Shown here: in pieces, positions 13,490-61,810 of the stretch
Layout of the letters: every line of letters starts with the position of its first letter
Numbering within the stretch: the first letter of the stretch is position 1
Source: Spirochaetota bacterium
GTDB taxonomy: Bacteria > Spirochaetota > Leptospiria > Turneriellales > Turneriellaceae
Length of the DNA: 64,000 nt
Direction: 5' to 3'
Assembly (NCBI GenBank): GCA_049323535.1
Contig: JBMOPL010000006.1
Location: forward strand, 31,614 to 95,613
The notes under the pieces: generated by a model
The model's database searches: none
What the model was told of the DNA's origin: nothing
What the model saw: the letters and a program-made list of their open reading frames with translations, nothing else
Position numbers and translations under genes: made by a program

Positions 13490-13777
13490 TTACTTATCGC
13501 ATTTCCAGGCGACAGCTTTCGCTGTGTACTGTTTGCCGAGTTTTGGGTGTGTGTGAGAGGTGATGCTGAGGAACACCTTGTCAGCGTTCATTTCTTTCGC
13601 CTGCTCGCGCACGGCCTTCTCAGCGGTTTCGCGATCCATCTGCATGAACTTGTTGCCTGCTGCGACTTCACCGAGACGCTCGCAACCTTTTACATCGTTT
13701 TCGCTGGGCACTACCTGTACCGAAGCCACAGAACCTGCAAATGCCATTGCCGCCAGAACCATCATTGTCTTTTTCAT
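13490..13777 (-). CDS. Small secreted protein, DUF4156-like; paralog of 61526-61810
   Basis: GGAGG SD, signal peptide MKKTMMVLAA, two Cys (GCERLGEV, AWKCDK). Confidence 0.7.
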   Translation of the reverse strand: MKKTMMVLAAMAFAGSVASVQVVPSENDVKGCERLGEVAAGNKFMQMDRETAEKAVREQAKEMNADKVFLSITSHTHPKLGKQYTAKAVAWKCDK

Positions 13778-13947
13778 GTTGTCCTCCAGTGATACCCGCG
13801 GTATCTTTTTTTGGCGGGGGATTTGTTCTTGTTTTGTGCCCGCCGCCGTTCGAGGGTTGTGCCCTCTTGTTGATCTGAATATCGCCCATTTTCGGCGATT
13901 TGTCATCAGAGCCGCCACGGTATTATCTGCGTGTTACTACGGAGTTT
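13778..13947 (-). promoter_or_regulatory. Conserved structured 5' leader, copy 1 (candidate cis-regulatory RNA and/or promoter)
   Basis: Aligns with 61357-61525 at about 70-75% identity by eye over the first ~90 nt; shared hairpins; near-identical distance to ATG. Confidence 0.6.
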
Positions 13948-14111
13948 CGTAACTTCTGGAGCTCCGCCGCGTTACTTTTGGGCTGTAAATGGCAGAAAAT
14001 GCGCCGAGGCTCATGCGGTGCCTGTCTGATGGGACGTTCTTCCAGATGTGTTCGTGGCAGGTTTGGCGCAATGTCGTTCGACACGTGTGGGGATATTCAG
14101 TTTTTGGAGCG

Positions 14112-15116
14112 ATGCGTTTTTGGGGATGGGGATTCACATTTTTTCTCGCGGCTTTAGTACCTACCAGCTGCAGTAACAGCTGGGGCAAATTCTGGGAGAT
14201 CCAGGGCGAAGATGCCACCGCCAAATGCCGCGGTGCCGTATCGGGCGATTCGATCAGCATGATCTGCGTGCCGGCGAACACGACGGGGTTTAGCCGGGGT
14301 TGGGCGGGGCTCGGCACGCCGATACATACCGTGGCTTCTATTTCCAGTTTCGCCATGGGTAAATATGAGGTCAAATACGCAGAGTGGGAAATCGTTCGCC
14401 TCTGGGCAATTAGCAATGGCTATACTTTCGCCAATGTTGGCGTACAAGGTGACGGCGCTGGCACTACTGATCAGCATCCTGCAACCAGCATGAACTGGCG
14501 GGACATGGTGATCTGGTGCAACGCGGCATCACAAAAAAACGGCCTAACCCCCGTATATTACACCGATGCGGCTTTCACAACCCCGATGAAGATTGCGACG
14601 AATAATGCACTCAGCGGCGCGACAACTGTTGCCGGGGGTGAGGACAATCCGTATTTCCTCTGGTCGGCAAATGGTTATCGCCTACCGACAAGTGCCGAAT
14701 ACGAATATGCAGCCCGCTATGAGAATGCCTCAACATTCACGCGCGGCGATGCACCTAGCGGCTGGAAAGATAACAATCCTGCCAACGGAGCTATCGATCA
14801 GGCTGAAAAGAATGCCGTCTCGTGGGATAACAACAGTTCACCGGGAAATACTCAACCGGTAGGTCAGTTGCAGCCGAATGCGCTGGGTTTCTATGACCTG
14901 AGCGGAAATGTATTTGAATTGTCGAATGACTGGTTAGCGACATATGTTGACGCATCACCCTTTACCGATGCCGATAGTAAAGGTGGGGCAACAGGCACGA
15001 ACCGTGAGGTGCGTGGAGGTGGTTTCGGTGGTGAATTTGGGACTGCTGCCCGGGGAAGTACAGTACCCGATGCCGGTGCGAACGAACGCGGCTTTCGCGT
15101 TGTCAGGCGTCCTTAG
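14112..15116 (+). CDS. FGE-sulfatase (formylglycine-generating enzyme-like) domain lipoprotein
   Basis: Lipobox-like VPTSC; MGKYEV, RLPTSAEYEYAAR, NALGFYDLSGNVFE, RGGGF, GFRVV. Confidence 0.85.
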   Translation: MRFWGWGFTFFLAALVPTSCSNSWGKFWEIQGEDATAKCRGAVSGDSISMICVPANTTGFSRGWAGLGTPIHTVASISSFAMGKYEVKYAEWEIVRLWAISNGYTFANVGVQGDGAGTTDQHPATSMNWRDMVIWCNAASQKNGLTPVYYTDAAFTTPMKIATNNALSGATTVAGGEDNPYFLWSANGYRLPTSAEYEYAARYENASTFTRGDAPSGWKDNNPANGAIDQAEKNAVSWDNNSSPGNTQPVGQLQPNALGFYDLSGNVFELSNDWLATYVDASPFTDADSKGGATGTNREVRGGGFGGEFGTAARGSTVPDAGANERGFRVVRRP

Positions 15117-53958: not shown

Positions 53959-54321
53959 ATGGAAGCTACCAATGACAACCGAAAGTATGAGCGCTACCTT
54001 GTAGGCCCACACCTAGACTGCAAAGTGCGCGTGCGGCATCCCGAAGAGCTGGTGGCTGACCTCAGTGATATTTCCGAAGGTGGAATGATGGTATTGCTGT
54101 CGCGCAACGAAGATATCGATGCACTCCACCCCCCGCTCGAAATCGAGGCAGAGATTGTGAGCGAGAACACGGCGCTGCAGTTTGCTTTTCGCGGCCGCAT
54201 CGTCTGGAAACGCGAATTTAATGAGGGCAGAAAAGCCTTTGCGAGCCTCGGGATTGAGTTTTCACCCGGCGTTAAGCTGCCGCGCACCATGATCGATGCG
54301 GTGGCCGAAGAACCTGCCTAA
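53959..54321 (+). CDS. PilZ-domain c-di-GMP receptor
   Basis: RKYER (RxxxR), DISEGG (DxSxxG), LGIEF. Confidence 0.85.
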   Translation: MEATNDNRKYERYLVGPHLDCKVRVRHPEELVADLSDISEGGMMVLLSRNEDIDALHPPLEIEAEIVSENTALQFAFRGRIVWKREFNEGRKAFASLGIEFSPGVKLPRTMIDAVAEEPA

Positions 54322-55421
54322 GCTACCCGCCGCAGCGGCATATTCTGCCAGTGCGAGAGCGAGCGCAGGAACCATTCGAGCGGACCTGTTGAGAAGCGCC
54401 GCAACCATAAGAGTGAGAAGCCGATTCCCGTGAGGTAAATGGCCGTCGCCACAAGAAACAATCCGTCATAGCTGAGCTTGTTATAGAGACCCAAGCCATA
54501 GCCATGAAAGACGACACCGGCAAGCAGCGACTGCAGGACATAGTTCGTCAGTGAAAGGCGACCTGCCGCGCTGAGCGGAGCTTTGAGCCATACCATACCT
54601 TTCGCAGCAGCGGAGAGTATAACCTGCGCGTAAAAGAGTGAAAGCAGCGGCGCACTCAGTGCCATCGCCAGCATCGCCACCGGCAGGTAGACCTTCAGCT
54701 GCCAGGTCGCCGCCGTCGCGTAGAGCAGGCTACCCGCGATACCAGCGAGGGCAAAAAGGCTCGAGAATGCGCTCAGCCGTATGTTCGCCAGCCAATGGCG
54801 GCGCTCGGCGAGATAGCCGAGGCAGATCATCGCGAGTGCACCCGGCCAGTTGAAGAGCATCACGTAGCCGAGCGAGACCGGGTAGACATTCAGGTTGCTC
54901 CACACTGCCAGCGCATAGCTGCTCGTGTAATTGGTCGCAGGCAACGCGGTGTTTGCCTGGCTCATCACCCCCAAAAAAGTATAGGTCATTCCCGAGATCA
55001 CCAGCCCCGTAATTGCCGTGACCCAGAGCGCCCGAGTGTGCATTTTGCTCAGCGGCAAAAACACCAAACCGAGCAGGCCGTAGCTGAGCAGGATATCGCC
55101 GGGAAAAAGCAGCACTGCATGCACAAAGCCGAGCAGTATCAGACCGAAAAAACGCCGCACCAGGAAAGCAGTGCCTTCGCGGTGCTGCAGCACCGCGATG
55201 CCGATTCCAAACAGAAACGAGAAGAGCGTGAAAAATTTTGCTTCGAAAAGAAGCGAGTTGGTAAACAGCGCGGCGCGCGCCACTGCGGTTTCCGGCATTT
55301 GTCGGTAAGAATCCCACGAGCGGGCGATCAGCGGCAGGTTGACAACGCAGATGCCCCAGAGGGCAAAACCCCGCAGCGCGTCGAGGCCCTCGATACGTTT
55401 TGGTGCTGCCTGTTCGGTCAT
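54318..55421 (-). CDS. DUF418 (YeiB-like) membrane protein
   Basis: RIEGLDALRGFALWGI, FFTLFSFLFGIG, GDILLSY, GRLSLTNY, GPLEW. Confidence 0.88.
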   Translation of the reverse strand: MTEQAAPKRIEGLDALRGFALWGICVVNLPLIARSWDSYRQMPETAVARAALFTNSLLFEAKFFTLFSFLFGIGIAVLQHREGTAFLVRRFFGLILLGFVHAVLLFPGDILLSYGLLGLVFLPLSKMHTRALWVTAITGLVISGMTYTFLGVMSQANTALPATNYTSSYALAVWSNLNVYPVSLGYVMLFNWPGALAMICLGYLAERRHWLANIRLSAFSSLFALAGIAGSLLYATAATWQLKVYLPVAMLAMALSAPLLSLFYAQVILSAAAKGMVWLKAPLSAAGRLSLTNYVLQSLLAGVVFHGYGLGLYNKLSYDGLFLVATAIYLTGIGFSLLWLRRFSTGPLEWFLRSLSHWQNMPLRRVA

Positions 55422-55424
55422 TGC

Positions 55425-56657
55425 TTACCCCTTGTGGTCCTGGTGCATCACCAGCCGGTGTATGGTGTACATCATTACTATTGTGACGATCATCGCGCCG
55501 ACCACGACGTAGCCCAGAACATCGTAGCGCGCCAGTGCCCCGCTGCTGGTTTTAATCACGATTGCGCCTGCTACGGCAGAAGCGATACCGCCGGAAATTT
55601 GCTGAAAGGCGGAGCTTACCCCCATGAACGCGCCGCGGTCCTGCGGTGCAGGTACACCGCTCATTAACGAAGAAGCTCCCACTATGCGCGCGGTGATTGC
55701 CGCAAAGAGCGCGGCCGTAATCAGCATCACGAGCCACAGCGGGCTTCGGCCGAGGTTGGTATAAATAACCACCAACACCATGCCGACGGTCGAACCGATG
55801 GTGAATACCTTGTACTTGCCGATAGCATCGCTCAGGCGACCGGCAATCGGGCCGGCGATCATCGCGGTGATGCCGGTCACCATGTAGAGCGTCGGCAGGT
55901 CGTCGTTGCTTAGGCCCAGGTTACCGGTACCGAATGCACTGCCAAACGGCATCAGCATGAAGCCACCGGTTGCGAGCAAGGTGGTCGCCGCGAAGCCGCG
56001 CAGGTAACGCGGCTTGCTGACCGTCGTCAACAGGTGGTGAAATGGGCTCTTGTCGATTTTGAGTGCGAGGTGTGCGTTGATGGGTCTCATCTTCAGAACG
56101 ATGACAGCTCCCACCGGTAAGCCGAGACCGACGATGAGCAGGAAGGGTGCATGCCAGTTGAACTTGTTGGCGACATAGAGCCCGACGGGAATGCCCAGCA
56201 CCTGGCTGGAGGCAAATGCCATCTGCAGAAAGCCCATCACGCGGCCGCGCGCTGAGAAAGCGAACACGTCGGTGACGATGGCGAACGCGATGGCGCTGAT
56301 CACACCGCCGAAGATGCCCGTCACCACGCGCGCGGCAAGCAGCGTGTGGTAGTCTGGCGCAAGTCCGCAGAGCAGCGTGCCGGCTAAAAAGCCCGTGTAG
56401 AAGACGAGCAACATGCGCTTGCGGTCGAAGCGGTCGGCAAAACCAGCTGCCAGAAGACCCGACGCGCCTGCACTGAATGCATAGGCTGAAACGACCCAGC
56501 CAAATTGCTGCGGGTCAATCGTGAGCGCGGGCATGAGTATTGCGCCGAGCGGCGACAAGACCATGAAGTCGAGAATGACCGTGAACTGCAGGATCGTGAG
56601 AATCGCGATGAGAAATTTTTCGTAGCCGGTGAATGCGGCCTTTTCGTTGGTTTGCAT
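55425..56657 (-). CDS. MFS transporter
   Basis: GFADRFDRKR, ARVVTGIFGG, RGRVMG, GRLSDAIG. Confidence 0.92.
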   Translation of the reverse strand: MQTNEKAAFTGYEKFLIAILTILQFTVILDFMVLSPLGAILMPALTIDPQQFGWVVSAYAFSAGASGLLAAGFADRFDRKRMLLVFYTGFLAGTLLCGLAPDYHTLLAARVVTGIFGGVISAIAFAIVTDVFAFSARGRVMGFLQMAFASSQVLGIPVGLYVANKFNWHAPFLLIVGLGLPVGAVIVLKMRPINAHLALKIDKSPFHHLLTTVSKPRYLRGFAATTLLATGGFMLMPFGSAFGTGNLGLSNDDLPTLYMVTGITAMIAGPIAGRLSDAIGKYKVFTIGSTVGMVLVVIYTNLGRSPLWLVMLITAALFAAITARIVGASSLMSGVPAPQDRGAFMGVSSAFQQISGGIASAVAGAIVIKTSSGALARYDVLGYVVVGAMIVTIVMMYTIHRLVMHQDHKG

Positions 56658-56825
56658 GAAGGTGCCTAGGCCTTAAGTATAGCAAATCTTCCCGGTTGTT
56701 ACCAGTGTTTTGCAGAGAAGGTTTGGTTATCCCGAAAATCCCTCATGTATTGTTCGTACAGAGCAAGCGTACGCAGCGTGAAATCAGGCTTTACATCCGG
56801 CAGACTCGTACTTCCTTCGGCTAGG

Positions 56826-58139
56826 GTGCGGAGTAACTTCTTTTGCGGGATTAGACGGACCTTCTGGATCGGGAAATTGCCCTTCTTCGGATTGCTGCTT
56901 CTGCTGGCTGGTCTTGCACAGCACTGCACCGTCGCCCGTAAGCGCAGCACCACCGCAGAGGTCAATACGACAGCAACTGCAGAGACGACGGGGCTTCGGC
57001 CCGCGAGCGTGCCCGGTATCGAGTCGATTCTGGCGAAGCCTGTTCTGCCGCGTGAACACGACCGGTTTTTTGACTGTATGGAGAACAGCGCCGCCATTAC
57101 AGCCCTGCGTCCACAGTATCCGGAATTCGATCTGTTTCCGAAAGTTGGCCACACAGACCGCGAGTTCTATCTCACCGAAGAAAGCGGCTGGCCGTTCGTG
57201 ATTGGCTTTCATGGTCGTTCACGCATGCAGCCCGGGCAGCCGGTCCTGGTGGGCCTGCGCGGCGAAGCTTCGGGTTTCCACAAATCTTCGGCGACACCGT
57301 CGTTTCTTCGCCTTCACCGTGATCTGCCAGCAACAACGCTCGTGACTGTTGATGAGTTTCGTAACGTGGAGAATAAGCAAAAAAAACGTTCGCTTGCACC
57401 GATATGCCATCGCAGCAAATATCCTGATCGCTACATCCATACAGAATCACCCGGCTTCGAAAACGGCGGGGGCACGCGACTCTTATGGAGGCTTACCGCA
57501 TACGAAAACCCGGTCATTATCGTTTCGTATAGCAACGCGACGACACCGCGCAACCAGATGTTTGAAAGAAAGATCCTGAGTGGCCGCAGCATTGACTTCA
57601 GGCAAATTTCCGATCACCGGAAATTTCTCGAAAGTTACCTGTTGGAAACAGGTTTTGCAGAAAACGCCTATCCGCACATCCGTGGTTTTATCGATATGGA
57701 GGGCAACTACGAAGTGACCAAACCCTTCTGGGACATGCTGGCCTATATCAGGCTGGAAATCTGGCGAGACCCTGAAAAATTTTTTTACAGCGCCGCGCGC
57801 ATCGACAAATTTGACGCCTATGCAGGGCATCTTGCAATGATTAAGGCTCTAAACCTTGAAGGTGTCGAAGATGACGAAGGTGTTATTCGCTATATGAATA
57901 AACAGCAGAATGTCGTGCTCGACCTCGTGACTACACCTTACCCGCCTCATTACGTTGGCAATTCGGGTGACATACGTAAGCTGACCAGGATGCGCGAGTC
58001 GAAAGCCAAAAAGATCACGCGCTCGCGGGTAAATCACTACCAAATGGGCGACTTCACTGTCGATCGTGTTCTGAGAACCACCCGTTTTCTCGAATCGCTC
58101 CGGCAGCCGCCGCTGCAAACCAGTCTTGCGCACCCGTGA
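56826..58139 (+). CDS. Hypothetical exported protein/lipoprotein, alpha/beta-hydrolase-like (paralog A); start may be 56745
   Basis: Lipoprotein-like GLLLLLAGLAQHC; IVSYSNAT, IRGFIDMEGN, late NHY; collinear with the next gene. Confidence 0.6.
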   Translation: MRSNFFCGIRRTFWIGKLPFFGLLLLLAGLAQHCTVARKRSTTAEVNTTATAETTGLRPASVPGIESILAKPVLPREHDRFFDCMENSAAITALRPQYPEFDLFPKVGHTDREFYLTEESGWPFVIGFHGRSRMQPGQPVLVGLRGEASGFHKSSATPSFLRLHRDLPATTLVTVDEFRNVENKQKKRSLAPICHRSKYPDRYIHTESPGFENGGGTRLLWRLTAYENPVIIVSYSNATTPRNQMFERKILSGRSIDFRQISDHRKFLESYLLETGFAENAYPHIRGFIDMEGNYEVTKPFWDMLAYIRLEIWRDPEKFFYSAARIDKFDAYAGHLAMIKALNLEGVEDDEGVIRYMNKQQNVVLDLVTTPYPPHYVGNSGDIRKLTRMRESKAKKITRSRVNHYQMGDFTVDRVLRTTRFLESLRQPPLQTSLAHP

Positions 58140-58155
58140 GGCTTAGGGGACATCG

Positions 58156-59328
58156 ATGAGGATTTTCCCTTTACTGTTTCTTGCTGCGCCGTTCGCAGGC
58201 CCTTTCCTGATCCACGCATTACCGTCGCTGACTGAAGAAAAATTTCGGGCTCACCTGGTGCAAAGATTCGCGCCGGTCGGCGAACAACACGCGGGAAGGA
58301 TCTTTGACTGTATCGACGAATCGCAGTCGGCCGCGCCGGTTCGTCTGAAGATCACGAACAAGACATTCAACTATTTCGAACCGGCTGCCGGCTTTGCGCA
58401 CTTTCTTGGGGAATTCAAGGGGTGGCCGCTGATGGTTTCGTTCGCGCACACAACGGCAGAAACGCGCCGACGGACCGTGGTGATACCCTTTCGCGGTGAC
58501 ACGTTCGGCTACCATAAGTCATTTCTGACTCCGGCCATCATTGACTACGCAGCCAGAGATGCCCGGAAGTTCCTGGTTTTTCCCGGCGAATTTATCTACG
58601 TAAAAAAGCCGCCGGCTTCAGCCGATCACGGCGCGCCGCTGCCCGTGATGTCCCTGTGCCATAACCGGTCTTACTGGTTTGGGCGTGTTGGCCCCGAGTG
58701 GCCGCTCATGGACGAGCATGCCTGGCCACTGCTGGCCGAGCTGTTTCCCTTCGACGTTGACTATGAGTTCATCGCCTACAGCAACGGGACCGTAAGCCGC
58801 AATGCGTTCTTGCGCCGTGAGCCGACGCAGGAGATCACTCCCTACAAAACAGCGGGCTTAAGCCCCAAAGACTATCTCGACTACTATATCAGAAATCACT
58901 CCGCACCACCTGCAGCTGCAAAGGCTATCAGGAGTCTGATTGATATCGAAGGCAATTTTCGCATCAGCAACGATCTTTTTGACCTGATGGCATTCATTCG
59001 CGATGAAATCATGCCGGACAAAGAACGCTCGTATTACTCGATTGTTCGGGTCGACAAACCGGATGCTTTTCCCGTAAATGCCCTGATGATTCGCGCGCTT
59101 GGCCTTCAGGCGATAGAAACCAGTGACGGGATTCTGCGCTACACCAATGCTCATGGTAATGTAATCATGGAGGTTCTCGGACGTAACGGGCGTGAGCCCT
59201 ATGGCAGCGGCGCCAATGACTTATTGAAAACGACGCCGGTTGAGCGTTATCGCGGTACCGTGCGGCGCAAAGCCGTATCGCATTTCGGCATCATCGATTT
59301 CGCACTAAAAAGGGAGGAAAGCCATTGA
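58156..59328 (+). CDS. Hypothetical exported protein, alpha/beta-hydrolase-like (paralog B)
   Basis: GGGGA SD, signal peptide; FIAYSNGT, IRSLIDIEGN, late SHF. Confidence 0.6.
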   Translation: MRIFPLLFLAAPFAGPFLIHALPSLTEEKFRAHLVQRFAPVGEQHAGRIFDCIDESQSAAPVRLKITNKTFNYFEPAAGFAHFLGEFKGWPLMVSFAHTTAETRRRTVVIPFRGDTFGYHKSFLTPAIIDYAARDARKFLVFPGEFIYVKKPPASADHGAPLPVMSLCHNRSYWFGRVGPEWPLMDEHAWPLLAELFPFDVDYEFIAYSNGTVSRNAFLRREPTQEITPYKTAGLSPKDYLDYYIRNHSAPPAAAKAIRSLIDIEGNFRISNDLFDLMAFIRDEIMPDKERSYYSIVRVDKPDAFPVNALMIRALGLQAIETSDGILRYTNAHGNVIMEVLGRNGREPYGSGANDLLKTTPVERYRGTVRRKAVSHFGIIDFALKREESH

Positions 59329-60458
59329 AACACCTTGCACTTATTCTGCTGGTACCGGTCTGTGTGTATCGGTGCAGCACAACGGCCCGGATGCAGGTCA
59401 CGCCGGAACATAGGGACTTTCTCACGCCGGTCAGTAGCAGCAGCTACCGCAACGACAGTATTAATAGGCTCTTTCACCGCCTCGAAGCAAAAGGCGATTC
59501 AGTCTGCGAAATGATTTTTCAGATGCGCCCATACGACGAAGCCGTAGCCAAAGAATTTTCCCAGACCCTCGATTTCCGCAAAGACCCCAGAGAGAAATGG
59601 TACAATAATGTTCTGCCCACGATGCTCGCAGGTTGTTTTAATTTTTTCAAAATGAATGACCGCGGTGTGCACAAGACTCTTGCACTGGTCGAAGAATTAT
59701 ACCCCGAGGCGAAAGACTGCTATACGGTCGGTTTTGCGCAGTTTTATCTGATGTTTCAGAAAATGCGTTGTAACCGCTTTGCCGCTATCGATATAGACTG
59801 GCGCATTCTCAAAGCCCACTATGACTTTCAAAGCCTCGCGCGCACCAATCGACAGCACGTGGGTGCCTTGACGCTTTTGCAGCAGTTAGAGCTGGGCTGG
59901 GTTGCGCACTTTGATACCCGGCCGCCCAGGCGCGAGCAGGTGAAAAGTGAAGTTTCACTGTGCATGGAGACTGAAAAGGTCCACTGTCGGAGTGCCTTTG
60001 AACATTACGTGAGCCAGGCACAGCTGCCAAAGACCGAGCTTGTCCTGGGATTCATACACGACGCCGACCTTGCACCGCGTGAAGGTGATGTCAGCGTTGT
60101 CTTCGCGAGCAATGCTCTCGATTGGGAATACACCAGCCGCGAGCAGTTCAACAAATTGCTCCAATCGGCACGGGATAGCCTGGGCAAGCGCAACAAGCTG
60201 GCCATCGTCTACCAGGCCGGGGACTCAGAAGATATCGCGGTTTATGAATTGGCCACTAATGAAGAGGGGGTTTTCACGGCCACCGTACGCTGCCGCGACA
60301 ATCTACGGTGGTCAGACCGCTACAAGAAATACCTGCGGGGCAAACCTATTTATACCTGGTTCGACGAAATCTACCAACGGGACCAGCTTAAGCAGGCACC
60401 CCGTTGTCACGTTGGCGGAACCCGCCGCTATATCACCGACTCAACCAAAAAAATCTGA
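59325..60458 (+). CDS. Hypothetical lipoprotein with SAM-methyltransferase-like fold (BtaA/DUF3419-like)
   Basis: GGAGG SD, TTGA overlap; Cys-containing signal; YTVGFAQF..FAAIDID and VVFASNALDW patterns. Confidence 0.5.
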   Translation: MKHLALILLVPVCVYRCSTTARMQVTPEHRDFLTPVSSSSYRNDSINRLFHRLEAKGDSVCEMIFQMRPYDEAVAKEFSQTLDFRKDPREKWYNNVLPTMLAGCFNFFKMNDRGVHKTLALVEELYPEAKDCYTVGFAQFYLMFQKMRCNRFAAIDIDWRILKAHYDFQSLARTNRQHVGALTLLQQLELGWVAHFDTRPPRREQVKSEVSLCMETEKVHCRSAFEHYVSQAQLPKTELVLGFIHDADLAPREGDVSVVFASNALDWEYTSREQFNKLLQSARDSLGKRNKLAIVYQAGDSEDIAVYELATNEEGVFTATVRCRDNLRWSDRYKKYLRGKPIYTWFDEIYQRDQLKQAPRCHVGGTRRYITDSTKKI

Positions 60459-61285
60459 GGTGTGATCCAGCGGCCGCCGCCTTTGTGCGGTTCGTGGCCG
60501 GTCAAGAGTCTCGTACCGGGTTTGATCGAGCGAATAAAGGCCAGATTCCGGTTTTGGTCGAACGCCGCGGCTGCTGGTAAACCTATGCCGTCATGGCATT
60601 CCTTGGCGAAATAGCACTCGTCCCCGGTGAAGATAGTGGGTTCGGATTTTGACTGCAACTGGATGACCAGCGACCCACGCGTATGGCCTGCCGTATGAAT
60701 TGCTTCCAGGTTGTCGCCCACGGACATGCGACTCTGAATAATTTGCAGTCGGTTTTGCGCCGCGAGTTTTTCAAACACCCGTTTCAGCTGCTGTGATTCA
60801 GGTTTTTCGGCTTCGCTGGCGTGAACGTAAACGGTTGCAGAACCGAACAGTTCAACGTCAAGCGCGTGATCAAAATGTGTATGTGTCAGGATAACCTTTT
60901 GAATTTGCCGCGGCTCTATATTGACCTGTTTCAGAATTTCGGTGATCGGTTTGAAGTCACGCAGGCCGAACCTCTTGATGAGTACCGGGTCGCTGAAACC
61001 GCAGTCGATGAGCGTGAGACTGCCGTCGGCTGAACGGATCAGATACGCCAGCCAGTGCACGTAGACCTTACCCACCGCCTGACGTGTATTGACTAGCCTG
61101 GCCGGGTATTCACTCTCTGCATACTTCAACGCGTAGATCTGCGTATCTTGACGCGGCTTCTTCTCCGCGGCCTGGCAACTGGCGAAAAGCACGCAGACGG
61201 CGAGGACCGCTGGCCTGATCGTAAGCAGCCATTCGTGCCCGTAAAATCCGGTTTTGAGTTCAAAGCGTCGAAGATTCCTGACCAC
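60428..61285 (-). CDS. Metallo-beta-lactamase-fold hydrolase, AiiA/AHL-lactonase-like, probably exported
   Basis: LIDCG, ILTHTHFDH (HxHxDH), TAGHTRG, FTGDEC, LTGHE; FASC lipobox-like. Confidence 0.8.
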   Translation of the reverse strand: MVRNLRRFELKTGFYGHEWLLTIRPAVLAVCVLFASCQAAEKKPRQDTQIYALKYAESEYPARLVNTRQAVGKVYVHWLAYLIRSADGSLTLIDCGFSDPVLIKRFGLRDFKPITEILKQVNIEPRQIQKVILTHTHFDHALDVELFGSATVYVHASEAEKPESQQLKRVFEKLAAQNRLQIIQSRMSVGDNLEAIHTAGHTRGSLVIQLQSKSEPTIFTGDECYFAKECHDGIGLPAAAAFDQNRNLAFIRSIKPGTRLLTGHEPHKGGGRWITPQIFLVESVI

Positions 61286-61356
61286 CGGGATCTACGGCTC
61301 TGCCATTGTCTCAACCGTAAAGTCTCATTTCAGGTGATCCGGCGCCATTACCCCCA

Positions 61357-61525
61357 AAACTCCGTAGTACCACTCAGATTTTCCGGTGTCGGCGCTGATG
61401 ACAAACGCAAAGACATGTGCTAAGTTCTGATCACCAAAAGGGCAGTCCCTTTCGGTGAGGGTGCGACAAGAAAGGACCTCGTGTCCGTCGCACCCAAGAT
61501 ACCTCGTGTATCATTGGAGGAAAAG
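61357..61525 (+). promoter_or_regulatory. Conserved structured 5' leader, copy 2
   Basis: Aligns with the reverse complement of 13778-13947; hairpins with compensatory changes. Confidence 0.6.
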
Positions 61526-61810
61526 ATGAAAAAGACAATTCTCGCTGTAACAGCACTGGTGTTTGTAGGAGCTCTGGCTTCGGTAGAAGTAATACCCGCA
61601 GACGCAAAACTGACCAACTGTGAAAACCTGGGTAAAGTACAGGCAGGTGACCGCTTCGCAGGCCTCGATCGCGAAACCGCAATCAAAGCCGTTAAAGAAG
61701 AAGCGAAAGCTATGAACGCGAACAAAGTGTTCCTGGATGTAACCTCGTACAACCACCCGAAACTCGGTAAGCAGTACGTCGCCAAGGCAAGCGCCTGGAA
61801 GTGCAACTAA
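61526..61810 (+). CDS. Small secreted protein, DUF4156-like; paralog of 13490-13777
   Basis: GGAGG SD, MKKTILAV signal, NCENLGKV, HPKLGKQY, AWKCN. Confidence 0.72.
   Translation: MKKTILAVTALVFVGALASVEVIPADAKLTNCENLGKVQAGDRFAGLDRETAIKAVKEEAKAMNANKVFLDVTSYNHPKLGKQYVAKASAWKCN

Follow-up and report, generated by a model that had tools for sequence, protein, structure and literature searches.

Methyltransferases and alpha/beta-hydrolase-fold esterases are known to form writer/eraser pairs (BioC/BioH, CheR/CheB, and LCMT/PME-1), and the BioC/BioH-type systems are cytoplasmic and driven by S-adenosylmethionine (SAM). Lactonases of acyl-homoserine lactones (AHLs) with an alpha/beta-hydrolase fold, AidH and AiiM, also exist. 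Here, we describe a locus of the freshwater spirochete Turneriella that encodes the same two folds together, in proteins predicted to be exported. It lies in a stretch of 64,000 nucleotides (the window; G000:C6:31614-95613, within a 4.0-Mb genome of 25 contigs) whose relatives in public records are labeled Turneriella sp. or Leptospiraceae metagenome-assembled genomes. Three genes on one strand encode two paralogous hydrolase-like proteins (genes A and B) and a methyltransferase-like lipoprotein (gene C), and a metallo-beta-lactamase-fold (MBL) gene converges on C (Table 1). The resemblance to BioC/BioH is an analogy only; although BioC turns up among the structures that C matches in fold, A, B, and C have no sequence relationship to those systems. 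We suggest that the locus belongs to an extracytoplasmic module that hydrolyzes ester or lactone bonds with the help of a methyltransferase-fold accessory protein, a reading to which we give about an even chance.

A and B are collinear paralogs, as the original prediction had it. They align over 352 residues with 27% identity (E 6e-38) and share all of the motifs that had been listed: R.FDC, GWP, RG...G.HKS..TP, CH, YSN, and ID[MI]EGN, followed by DK.DA, MI.AL.L, G[VI][IL]RY.N, and [NS]H[YF]. The split between them is old and deep rather than the product of a recent tandem duplication because, in a maximum-likelihood tree, A-type sequences form one clade (support 97/95) and 10 of 11 B-type sequences form another (100/100), with distant members of the family branching between the two. 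The family is among the rarest that we have seen: an exhaustive HMMER search with an A/B profile found 44 members among 1.84 billion cluster representatives, and word-indexed searches of 5.8 billion proteins returned 13 to 23 relatives per query protein. A/B genes are present in 12 of the 14 genomes of the genus and in none of the six genomes from the other genera of the family, and no genus other than Turneriella carries them among 401 sampled genomes of the phylum; A/B is an addition confined to Turneriella. Neither A, B, nor C matched anything in scans of Pfam (even at an E of 1), NCBIfam, or PADLOC, and PDB sequence searches with four profiles, broadened ones included, returned nothing at E up to 10. 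The module was thus rightly called undescribed, in that these searches assign A, B, and C to no characterized pathway.

To place A and B among known folds, we rely on a model of B. An AlphaFold2 model built from the family alignment (predicted local distance difference test [pLDDT] 90.2; predicted template-modeling score [pTM] 0.89) had only alpha/beta hydrolases among its top 50 Foldseek matches in the PDB (best E 3.6e-5, probability 1.0; template-modeling [TM] scores 0.30-0.49 at ~10% identity), in line with the fold that had been guessed from sequence motifs. The nearest structures are esterase D/S-formylglutathione hydrolases (3c6b and 4b6g), esterases of the hormone-sensitive-lipase family (1jkm and 1qz3), and the periplasmic enterobactin esterase PfeE (6gi1), which is exported, as A and B are predicted to be. 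The predicted B structure shares with these enzymes the strand order of the core and its helices, a Ser elbow after strand 5, a His in a C-terminal loop, and a loop after strand 3. Ser209, the predicted nucleophile-elbow position, directly follows the fifth core strand (202-208) and precedes helix 211-219. The elbow had been described as non-canonical; instead, A-Y-S209-N-G in B and S-Y-S236-N-A in A both fit the Sm-x-Ser-x-Sm rule. H376 of B (H404 in A) stands ahead of the terminal helix, and R113-G114...G118-x-H120 follows strand 3 (107-112), where alpha/beta hydrolases have their oxyanion loops.

We next consider conservation, using an alignment of 26 family members that extends down to 18% identity. 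Nine positions are invariant (B numbering: C52, R113, G114, G118, H120, C168, N210, D263, and G325), and seven more are at least 90% conserved (D51, H169, S209, R215, E265, N267, and H376). D51, H120, H169, D263, E265, and N267 are extra invariant or nearly invariant residues that set A and B apart from other alpha/beta hydrolases, as does an N-terminal extension of ~80 residues, predicted to be tied in by a conserved Cys pair (Cys52 and Cys168 in B; Cys84 and Cys194 are conserved in A). Of the catalytic triad originally proposed, the Ser and the His stand, whereas the acid is ambiguous: D303 (VDKPDA in B, after strand 292-298) is conserved in the Turneriella clade only and not in distant members. 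The acid that is invariant is D263, which ends strand 258-264 and belongs to the ID.EGN motif. S209, H169, and H376 are all missing from one divergent member (P0078), the only one that has no His at position 376; this joint loss suggests that the three residues work as a set. Since both A (Ser236, Asp290, and His404) and B retain the whole Ser/His/acid set, both proteins are probably active. Profile comparisons gave no such signal: B had no match to the Pfam families PF00756 (esterase D/Fes) and PF07859 (Abhydrolase_3) at an E of 1, and hhalign of the family against an Abhydrolase_3 alignment built from relatives gave a probability <1%, with no signal for the Ser/His register. PF00756 itself occurs in 1 of 41 genomes of the class versus 10 of 14 control genomes.

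All three proteins carry export or lipoprotein-like signals, as had been noted, and these predicted signals are conserved in orthologs. The hydrophobic segment of A ends in a conserved Cys34 and is followed by a low-complexity tether of ~45 aa. B has a cleavable signal of the signal-peptidase-I type (..IHA/LPS) and no lipobox. The lipobox Cys17 of C is shared by 19 of the 22 members of its family; the remaining three have no N-terminal signal region. A lipobox Cys at the end of the hydrophobic segment is also present in most A-type orthologs and in six of eight MBL orthologs. An IRRTFW motif in A raised the question of export by the twin-arginine translocation (Tat) pathway, which we ruled out, as the RR pair is not conserved in orthologs.

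With products that are predicted to be anchored in or released into the envelope, the system might modify lipids or the cell surface, for example, by deacylation of, or acyl transfer on, lipoproteins, lipopolysaccharide, or phospholipids. The long tether of A could reach the membrane surface, and serine-hydrolase folds include lipases and acyltransferases. We nevertheless regard such a role as unlikely. The best fold matches are small-molecule esterases and not lipases, no lipid-metabolism gene is linked at the loci examined, and the conserved partners are a lactonase-like MBL protein and proteins resembling the formylglycine-generating enzyme (FGE). Moreover, the likeness of C to BtaA/DUF3419 suggested in the original prediction was not borne out: neither C nor its two paralogs had a Pfam match to this family at E up to 1.

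Before turning to the fold of C, its extent has to be settled. In the protein collection, C of the present genome is represented only by a 315-aa form that starts at Met63 (P0016). This automated call overlooks the TTG start and lacks both the lipoprotein signal and 45 conserved residues. A short, cytoplasmic C starting at M63 was ruled out; the long form is correct because the upstream 62 residues are conserved, are well modeled (pLDDT ~95), and stand behind a strong ribosome-binding site. Automated annotation shortens C and conceals its signal peptide, a practical reason for caution with the whole family. Eight Cys residues of C (61, 104, 132, 149, 213, 221, 323, and 361) are conserved, even in paralogs with <20% identity, Cys61 being nearly invariant. 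Given these eight residues and the conserved lipobox, C is probably a disulfide-bonded protein that folds outside the cytoplasm.

The genes around members of these families agree with a disulfide-bonded, extracytoplasmic C, as DsbA-like or DsbD genes adjoin family members at three other loci. A DSBA-domain gene follows the C ortholog in genomes G014 and G017, and a solo A-type gene converges with dsbD in G014. In the present genome (C10:379055-382561), an operon joined by 4-nt overlaps encodes a LytTR regulator, a distant C paralog (360 aa, exported, and with the same eight Cys residues), a second LytTR regulator, and a DsbA-like CPYC lipoprotein; a gene for a LytS-type kinase converges on this operon. 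In total, the present genome has two distant C paralogs (<25% identity). C-type genes are spread slightly more widely than A/B: they occur in four of the six genera of the family and, across the phylum, in 6 of 401 genomes, from four genera. One C ortholog (L018:7470-8600, in G018) is interrupted by an in-frame TAG, which would make it a pseudogene unless the assembly is at fault.

The AlphaFold2 model of C, also built from a family alignment (pLDDT 88.5; pTM 0.88), had only class I SAM methyltransferases among its top 50 Foldseek matches in the PDB (best E 2e-5; TM 0.26/0.36). The nearest are small-molecule N-methyltransferases of the NNMT/PNMT type (7nbm and 2iip), CypM, PIMT, BioC, and ToxA. 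At the level of the predicted fold, the earlier suggestion of a SAM-fold-like protein is therefore upheld, and the motifs on which it was based (TVGFAQ, AIDID, and VFASNALDW) are present and conserved. Like class I methyltransferases, the model has a Rossmann-like sheet, a helical N-terminal cap, a Gly (G136) after strand 1, and an Asp (D156) that ends strand 2 (151-156), and its strands 3 and 4 are followed by conserved polar residues, S262-N263 being those after strand 4. We take G136, D156, and S262-N263 to be the positions of methyltransferase motifs I, post-I, and IV. Each of 21 sequences, paralogs with <20% identity among them, keeps G103, C104, D112, C132, V135, G136, F137, Q139, C149, and D156, and further C213, C221, S262, N263, F275, Y307, C323, and C361. 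Unlike class I methyltransferases, C is a predicted exported lipoprotein with eight conserved Cys residues, it has no match to a Pfam methyltransferase model, and its motif I reads VGFxQ, with a single Gly, instead of the glycine-rich GxGxG.

Could C nevertheless methylate substrates outside the cytoplasm? In such a scheme, C would be an active SAM methyltransferase, A and B would be methylesterases, and the MBL protein would act on a by-product. The fold of C fits, as does the pairing of a methyltransferase with esterases, which matches known writer/eraser logic, and the invariant Asp stands 20 residues after the motif-I Gly, which is the usual spacing from motif I to post-I. In addition, lipoproteins with a canonical motif I do exist in these genomes: one of ~391 aa, with the motif (DVMFDLGCGDARIL...GYDLD) behind a lipobox, is encoded at C17:219436-220608 in the present genome and at L100:3762-4937 in G014. 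In G014 and G017, the gene for this lipoprotein, whose motif I (DLGCGDA) is fully canonical, lies directly upstream of the C ortholog, with an exported caspase-like protein encoded on its other side. Against this scheme, we know of no source of SAM outside the bacterial cytoplasm, motif I of C is degenerate, C has no Tat signal that would permit export pre-loaded with cofactor, and a search of 8.4 million papers did not find the phrase "periplasmic methyltransferase." Use of SAM by C is unlikely given its predicted compartment, and we consider extracytoplasmic methylation and demethylation by this locus very improbable.

A broader form of the same idea extends to Pfam family DUF7790, for which our literature search found no paper. 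DUF7790 proteins are lipoproteins of the same genomes, and VGxxQ-(16)-D and SNA(E/L)(E/D) are common to them and to C. This is a likeness at the level of motifs only; we do not claim homology, the hhalign probability being 0.8-8.8%. That C, its paralogs, and possibly DUF7790 are true extracytoplasmic methyltransferases or users of a SAM-like cofactor, with A and B as the matching esterases, is a long shot, to which the lipoprotein with a canonical motif I beside C orthologs in two genomes lends some weight. If true, it would be the first periplasmic methylation/demethylation system and would provide a possible origin for the methylation of leptospiral surface proteins, which is so far unexplained.

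The convergent lactonase-like gene had been treated as a mere neighbor, whereas it proved to be the most widely conserved partner of C. Its product matches Pfam Lactamase_B (E 1e-16), and all eight orthologs aligned keep the HxHxDH motif (H135-H140), His201, Asp222, and His264 unchanged. In these metal ligands and in its best NCBIfam and PDB matches, it resembles AiiA-type lactonases; it differs from them in its lipobox (Cys37), in having C and FGE-like lipoproteins as neighbors, and in its score. The start codon is uncertain, and orthologs start nearer the lipobox.

The named proteins closest to the MBL protein (AiiA, YtnP, AidB, and GcL) are quorum-quenching lactonases, so one may ask whether the system quenches or processes signals, with the MBL protein and the hydrolases degrading AHLs or other lactone or ester signals of neighboring microbes and C binding them. 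The alpha/beta-hydrolase fold of some AHL lactonases would suit A and B, and the C paralog that is flanked on both sides by LytTR response regulators and faces a LytS-type kinase would suit signaling. The MBL protein, however, is far under every lactonase family cut-off (57.6 bits against 375 bits for AiiA), and the lactonase clade also holds enzymes that do not act on signals, such as 4-pyridoxolactonase. Nothing connects A, B, or C to AHLs. We judge a role in signaling quite unlikely.

Comparison across genomes places these genes in a larger set. In all six Turneriella loci of this arrangement that were examined, including that of the window, A (with or without B) and C stand tail to tail with the MBL gene. 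In another genus (G002 and G003), a gene for an FGE-sulfatase-domain lipoprotein lies 5' of C, again tail to tail with the MBL gene, and the hydrolases are absent. In another family of the phylum (G391 and G305), C, an FGE-like gene, and the MBL gene follow one another on one strand. In G014 and G017, a gene for an FGE-DUF7790 fusion is followed by an FGE-like gene and the MBL gene, which converges with an A-type hydrolase gene, and C is encoded elsewhere. C, the MBL protein, and FGE-like lipoproteins are linked in three genera, in differing gene orders. A/B, C, and MBL genes are present together in 12 of the 14 genomes of the genus; G013 has none of them. This linkage, which persists through several rearrangements, is good evidence that these families work together. 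The three genes of the original prediction are indeed linked, but they are a local slice of a larger module, as the MBL and FGE-like partners stay linked in relatives.

In most Turneriella genomes, the MBL gene follows a gene for a lipoprotein of 590 aa in which an FGE-like domain is joined to DUF7790. Two genes on the minus strand of the present genome (C15:43660-46376), beside rimP-nusA-infB, encode such a fusion lipoprotein (FGE-sulfatase+DUF7790, 596 aa) and, after it, a 309-aa FGE-sulfatase lipoprotein; this rimP-nusA site is the one that holds the full set in G014. Other genes that flank the block vary between genomes. In four relatives, a cluster of the type that makes ribosomally synthesized and post-translationally modified peptides flanks the A-B-C/MBL block. 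It encodes a fusion of an MNIO (MbnB/TglH/ChrH, PF05114) domain to DUF2063 and an extracytoplasmic function sigma factor (for example, L014:1368-4655 in G015). We ruled this cluster out as a required partner; in the present genome, it stands uninterrupted and without the block (C17:92600-98300), the flanks being contiguous there.

The FGE-like partners raise the possibility that the module is mainly a structural assembly of lipoproteins in which enzyme folds have been co-opted and little or nothing is catalyzed, as in the FGE-fold proteins PorK/GldK or TagR. Motif I of C is degenerate, and the FGE-like partners lack what we take to be the catalytic Cys pair of true FGE. In addition, FGE-fold proteins are described as structural ring components in PMC12421860. 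Several observations speak for catalysis instead: the metal site of the MBL protein is fully conserved, A and B have kept the Ser and His as well as the oxyanion-loop residues over deep divergence, and pseudoenzymes usually lose their catalytic residues, as the single member P0078 did. A mainly structural role is thus barely credible.

We favor an extracytoplasmic hydrolytic module, deriving its activity, compartment, cooperation, and type of substrate from gene structure, paralogy, folds, conservation, export signals, and linkage. A would be a tethered lipoprotein and B a soluble periplasmic protein, anciently diverged paralogs of an orphan branch of the alpha/beta hydrolases. Because both keep the Ser-His-acid set, they would most likely be serine esterases or thioesterases. 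The MBL lipoprotein, with its complete di-metal site and with lactonases as its nearest relatives, would act as a hydrolytic partner. C keeps the signature of a ligand pocket (VGFxQ, the Asp that ends strand 2, and the SN after strand 4), and its most likely task is to bind or present the substrate or to perform a SAM-independent step, as it would fold where no SAM is known. Together, these proteins might open ester or lactone bonds in a small molecule or an envelope component and, in relatives, might do so in concert with FGE-like lipoproteins.

Several points weigh against this proposal. First, the fold-level relations of A/B and C are remote, with low TM scores and ~10% identity in the Foldseek matches of the B and C models, and sequence-profile methods connect neither the A/B nor the C family to any known family. 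Second, there are two candidates for the acid of the triad, the invariant D263 and the clade-specific D303. Third, C retains residues that resemble SAM motifs and may be a real methyltransferase. Fourth, A/B proteins do not in general depend on C or the MBL protein, because more distant A/B homologs are solitary genes in unrelated surroundings, without C or MBL neighbors. Finally, the module may include non-enzymatic parts, since the FGE-like partners have no such Cys pair. Overall, the observations of the original prediction are confirmed, and its interpretation is partly supported.

The genes are tightly linked, with the spacing that had been reported. The 16-nt spacer between A and B holds an AGGGGA Shine-Dalgarno sequence, and the TGA stop of B (59326-59328) overlaps the TTG start of C (59325) as TTGA, 6 nt 3' of a GGGAGGA ribosome-binding site. 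The start of A is uncertain: it is either the GTG at 56826 (437 aa) or an ATG at 56745 (464 aa), where the record in the protein collection begins. C and the MBL gene overlap at their 3' ends, which leaves no space for a terminator between them, and no terminator was predicted there; a tail-to-tail overlap of 12-34 nt is found in six of seven related loci. Terminator-like sites are not enriched in the region (9 found against 7.3 expected from shuffled sequence), and a scan of the region found no Rfam match and predicted no sigma-70-like promoter. Upstream and divergent from the operon are genes for a membrane protein with 10-12 transmembrane segments and a transporter of the major facilitator superfamily (MFS), which are probably unrelated to it because they are not kept beside the operon in any relative. 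Beyond the MBL gene lies a small exported gene that has a paralog elsewhere in the window. A conserved element of ~90 nt is common to the intergenic stretch that separates the MBL gene from the small gene and to the region before the paralog, and the gene divergent from that paralog encodes an FGE-like lipoprotein.

Table 1. Features of the A-B-C/MBL locus and related elements (window coordinates)
Feature	Coordinates	Strand	Description	Basis
Gene A	56826..58139	+	Lipoprotein of an orphan family with a predicted alpha/beta-hydrolase fold	Open reading frame (ORF), paralogy with B, orthologs, conserved lipobox, clade 97/95
Gene B	58156..59328	+	Predicted secreted paralog of A, 390 aa	ORF, AlphaFold model, Foldseek, conservation
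Gene C	59325..60458	+	377-aa lipoprotein (TTG start) with a Rossmann fold predicted to be of the class I methyltransferase type	ORF, model, Foldseek, invariant residues, ribosome-binding site
MBL gene	60428..61285	-	MBL-fold lactonase-like lipoprotein	Pfam, ortholog alignment, conserved convergent neighbor of C
C/MBL 3'-end overlap	60428..60458	.	31 nt	Coordinates
A, Cys34	56925..56927		Conserved Cys ending the hydrophobic segment	
A, Ser236	57531..57533		Putative nucleophile	
A, Asp290	57693..57695		Candidate triad acid	
A, His404	58035..58037		Candidate triad His	
B, Ser209	58780..58782		Predicted nucleophile-elbow Ser	
B, Asp263	58942..58944		Candidate triad acid, invariant	
B, Asp303	59062..59064		Candidate triad acid, clade-specific	
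B, His376	59281..59283		Candidate triad His	
C, region before Met63	59325..59511		Omitted from the 315-aa automated call	
C, Cys17	59373..59375		Lipobox Cys	
C, V135-G-F-x-Q139	59727..59741		Presumed motif I	
C, D156	59790..59792		Presumed post-I Asp	
C, S262-N263	60108..60113		Presumed motif IV	
MBL, HxHxDH	60866..60883		Metal-ligand motif	
MBL, Cys37	61175..61177		Lipobox Cys	
Divergent upstream genes	54318..56657	-	Membrane protein and MFS transporter	
Conserved element, region 1	61286..61480		Between MBL gene and small exported gene	
Small exported gene	61481..61810			
Paralog of small gene	13490..13777			
Conserved element, region 2	13780..13950		Before the paralog	
FGE-like lipoprotein gene	13989..15116		Divergent from the paralog	

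A/B and C are new families within known folds, and the compartment is unusual for the fold of C. Two families that had no home in databases gain a fold, candidate catalytic residues, and conserved partners, which makes them directly testable. C is of greater interest: this disulfide-rich lipoprotein combines a methyltransferase fold with a preserved pocket signature and stands beside a lactonase-like metallo-enzyme and FGE-like lipoproteins in three genera. If C only binds a substrate, the system would enlarge the periplasmic catabolism of free-living spirochetes only modestly. If C is catalytic, the fold would have acquired a new use, or else methyl groups would be transferred beyond the cytoplasm, which, to our knowledge, has not been described for bacteria.

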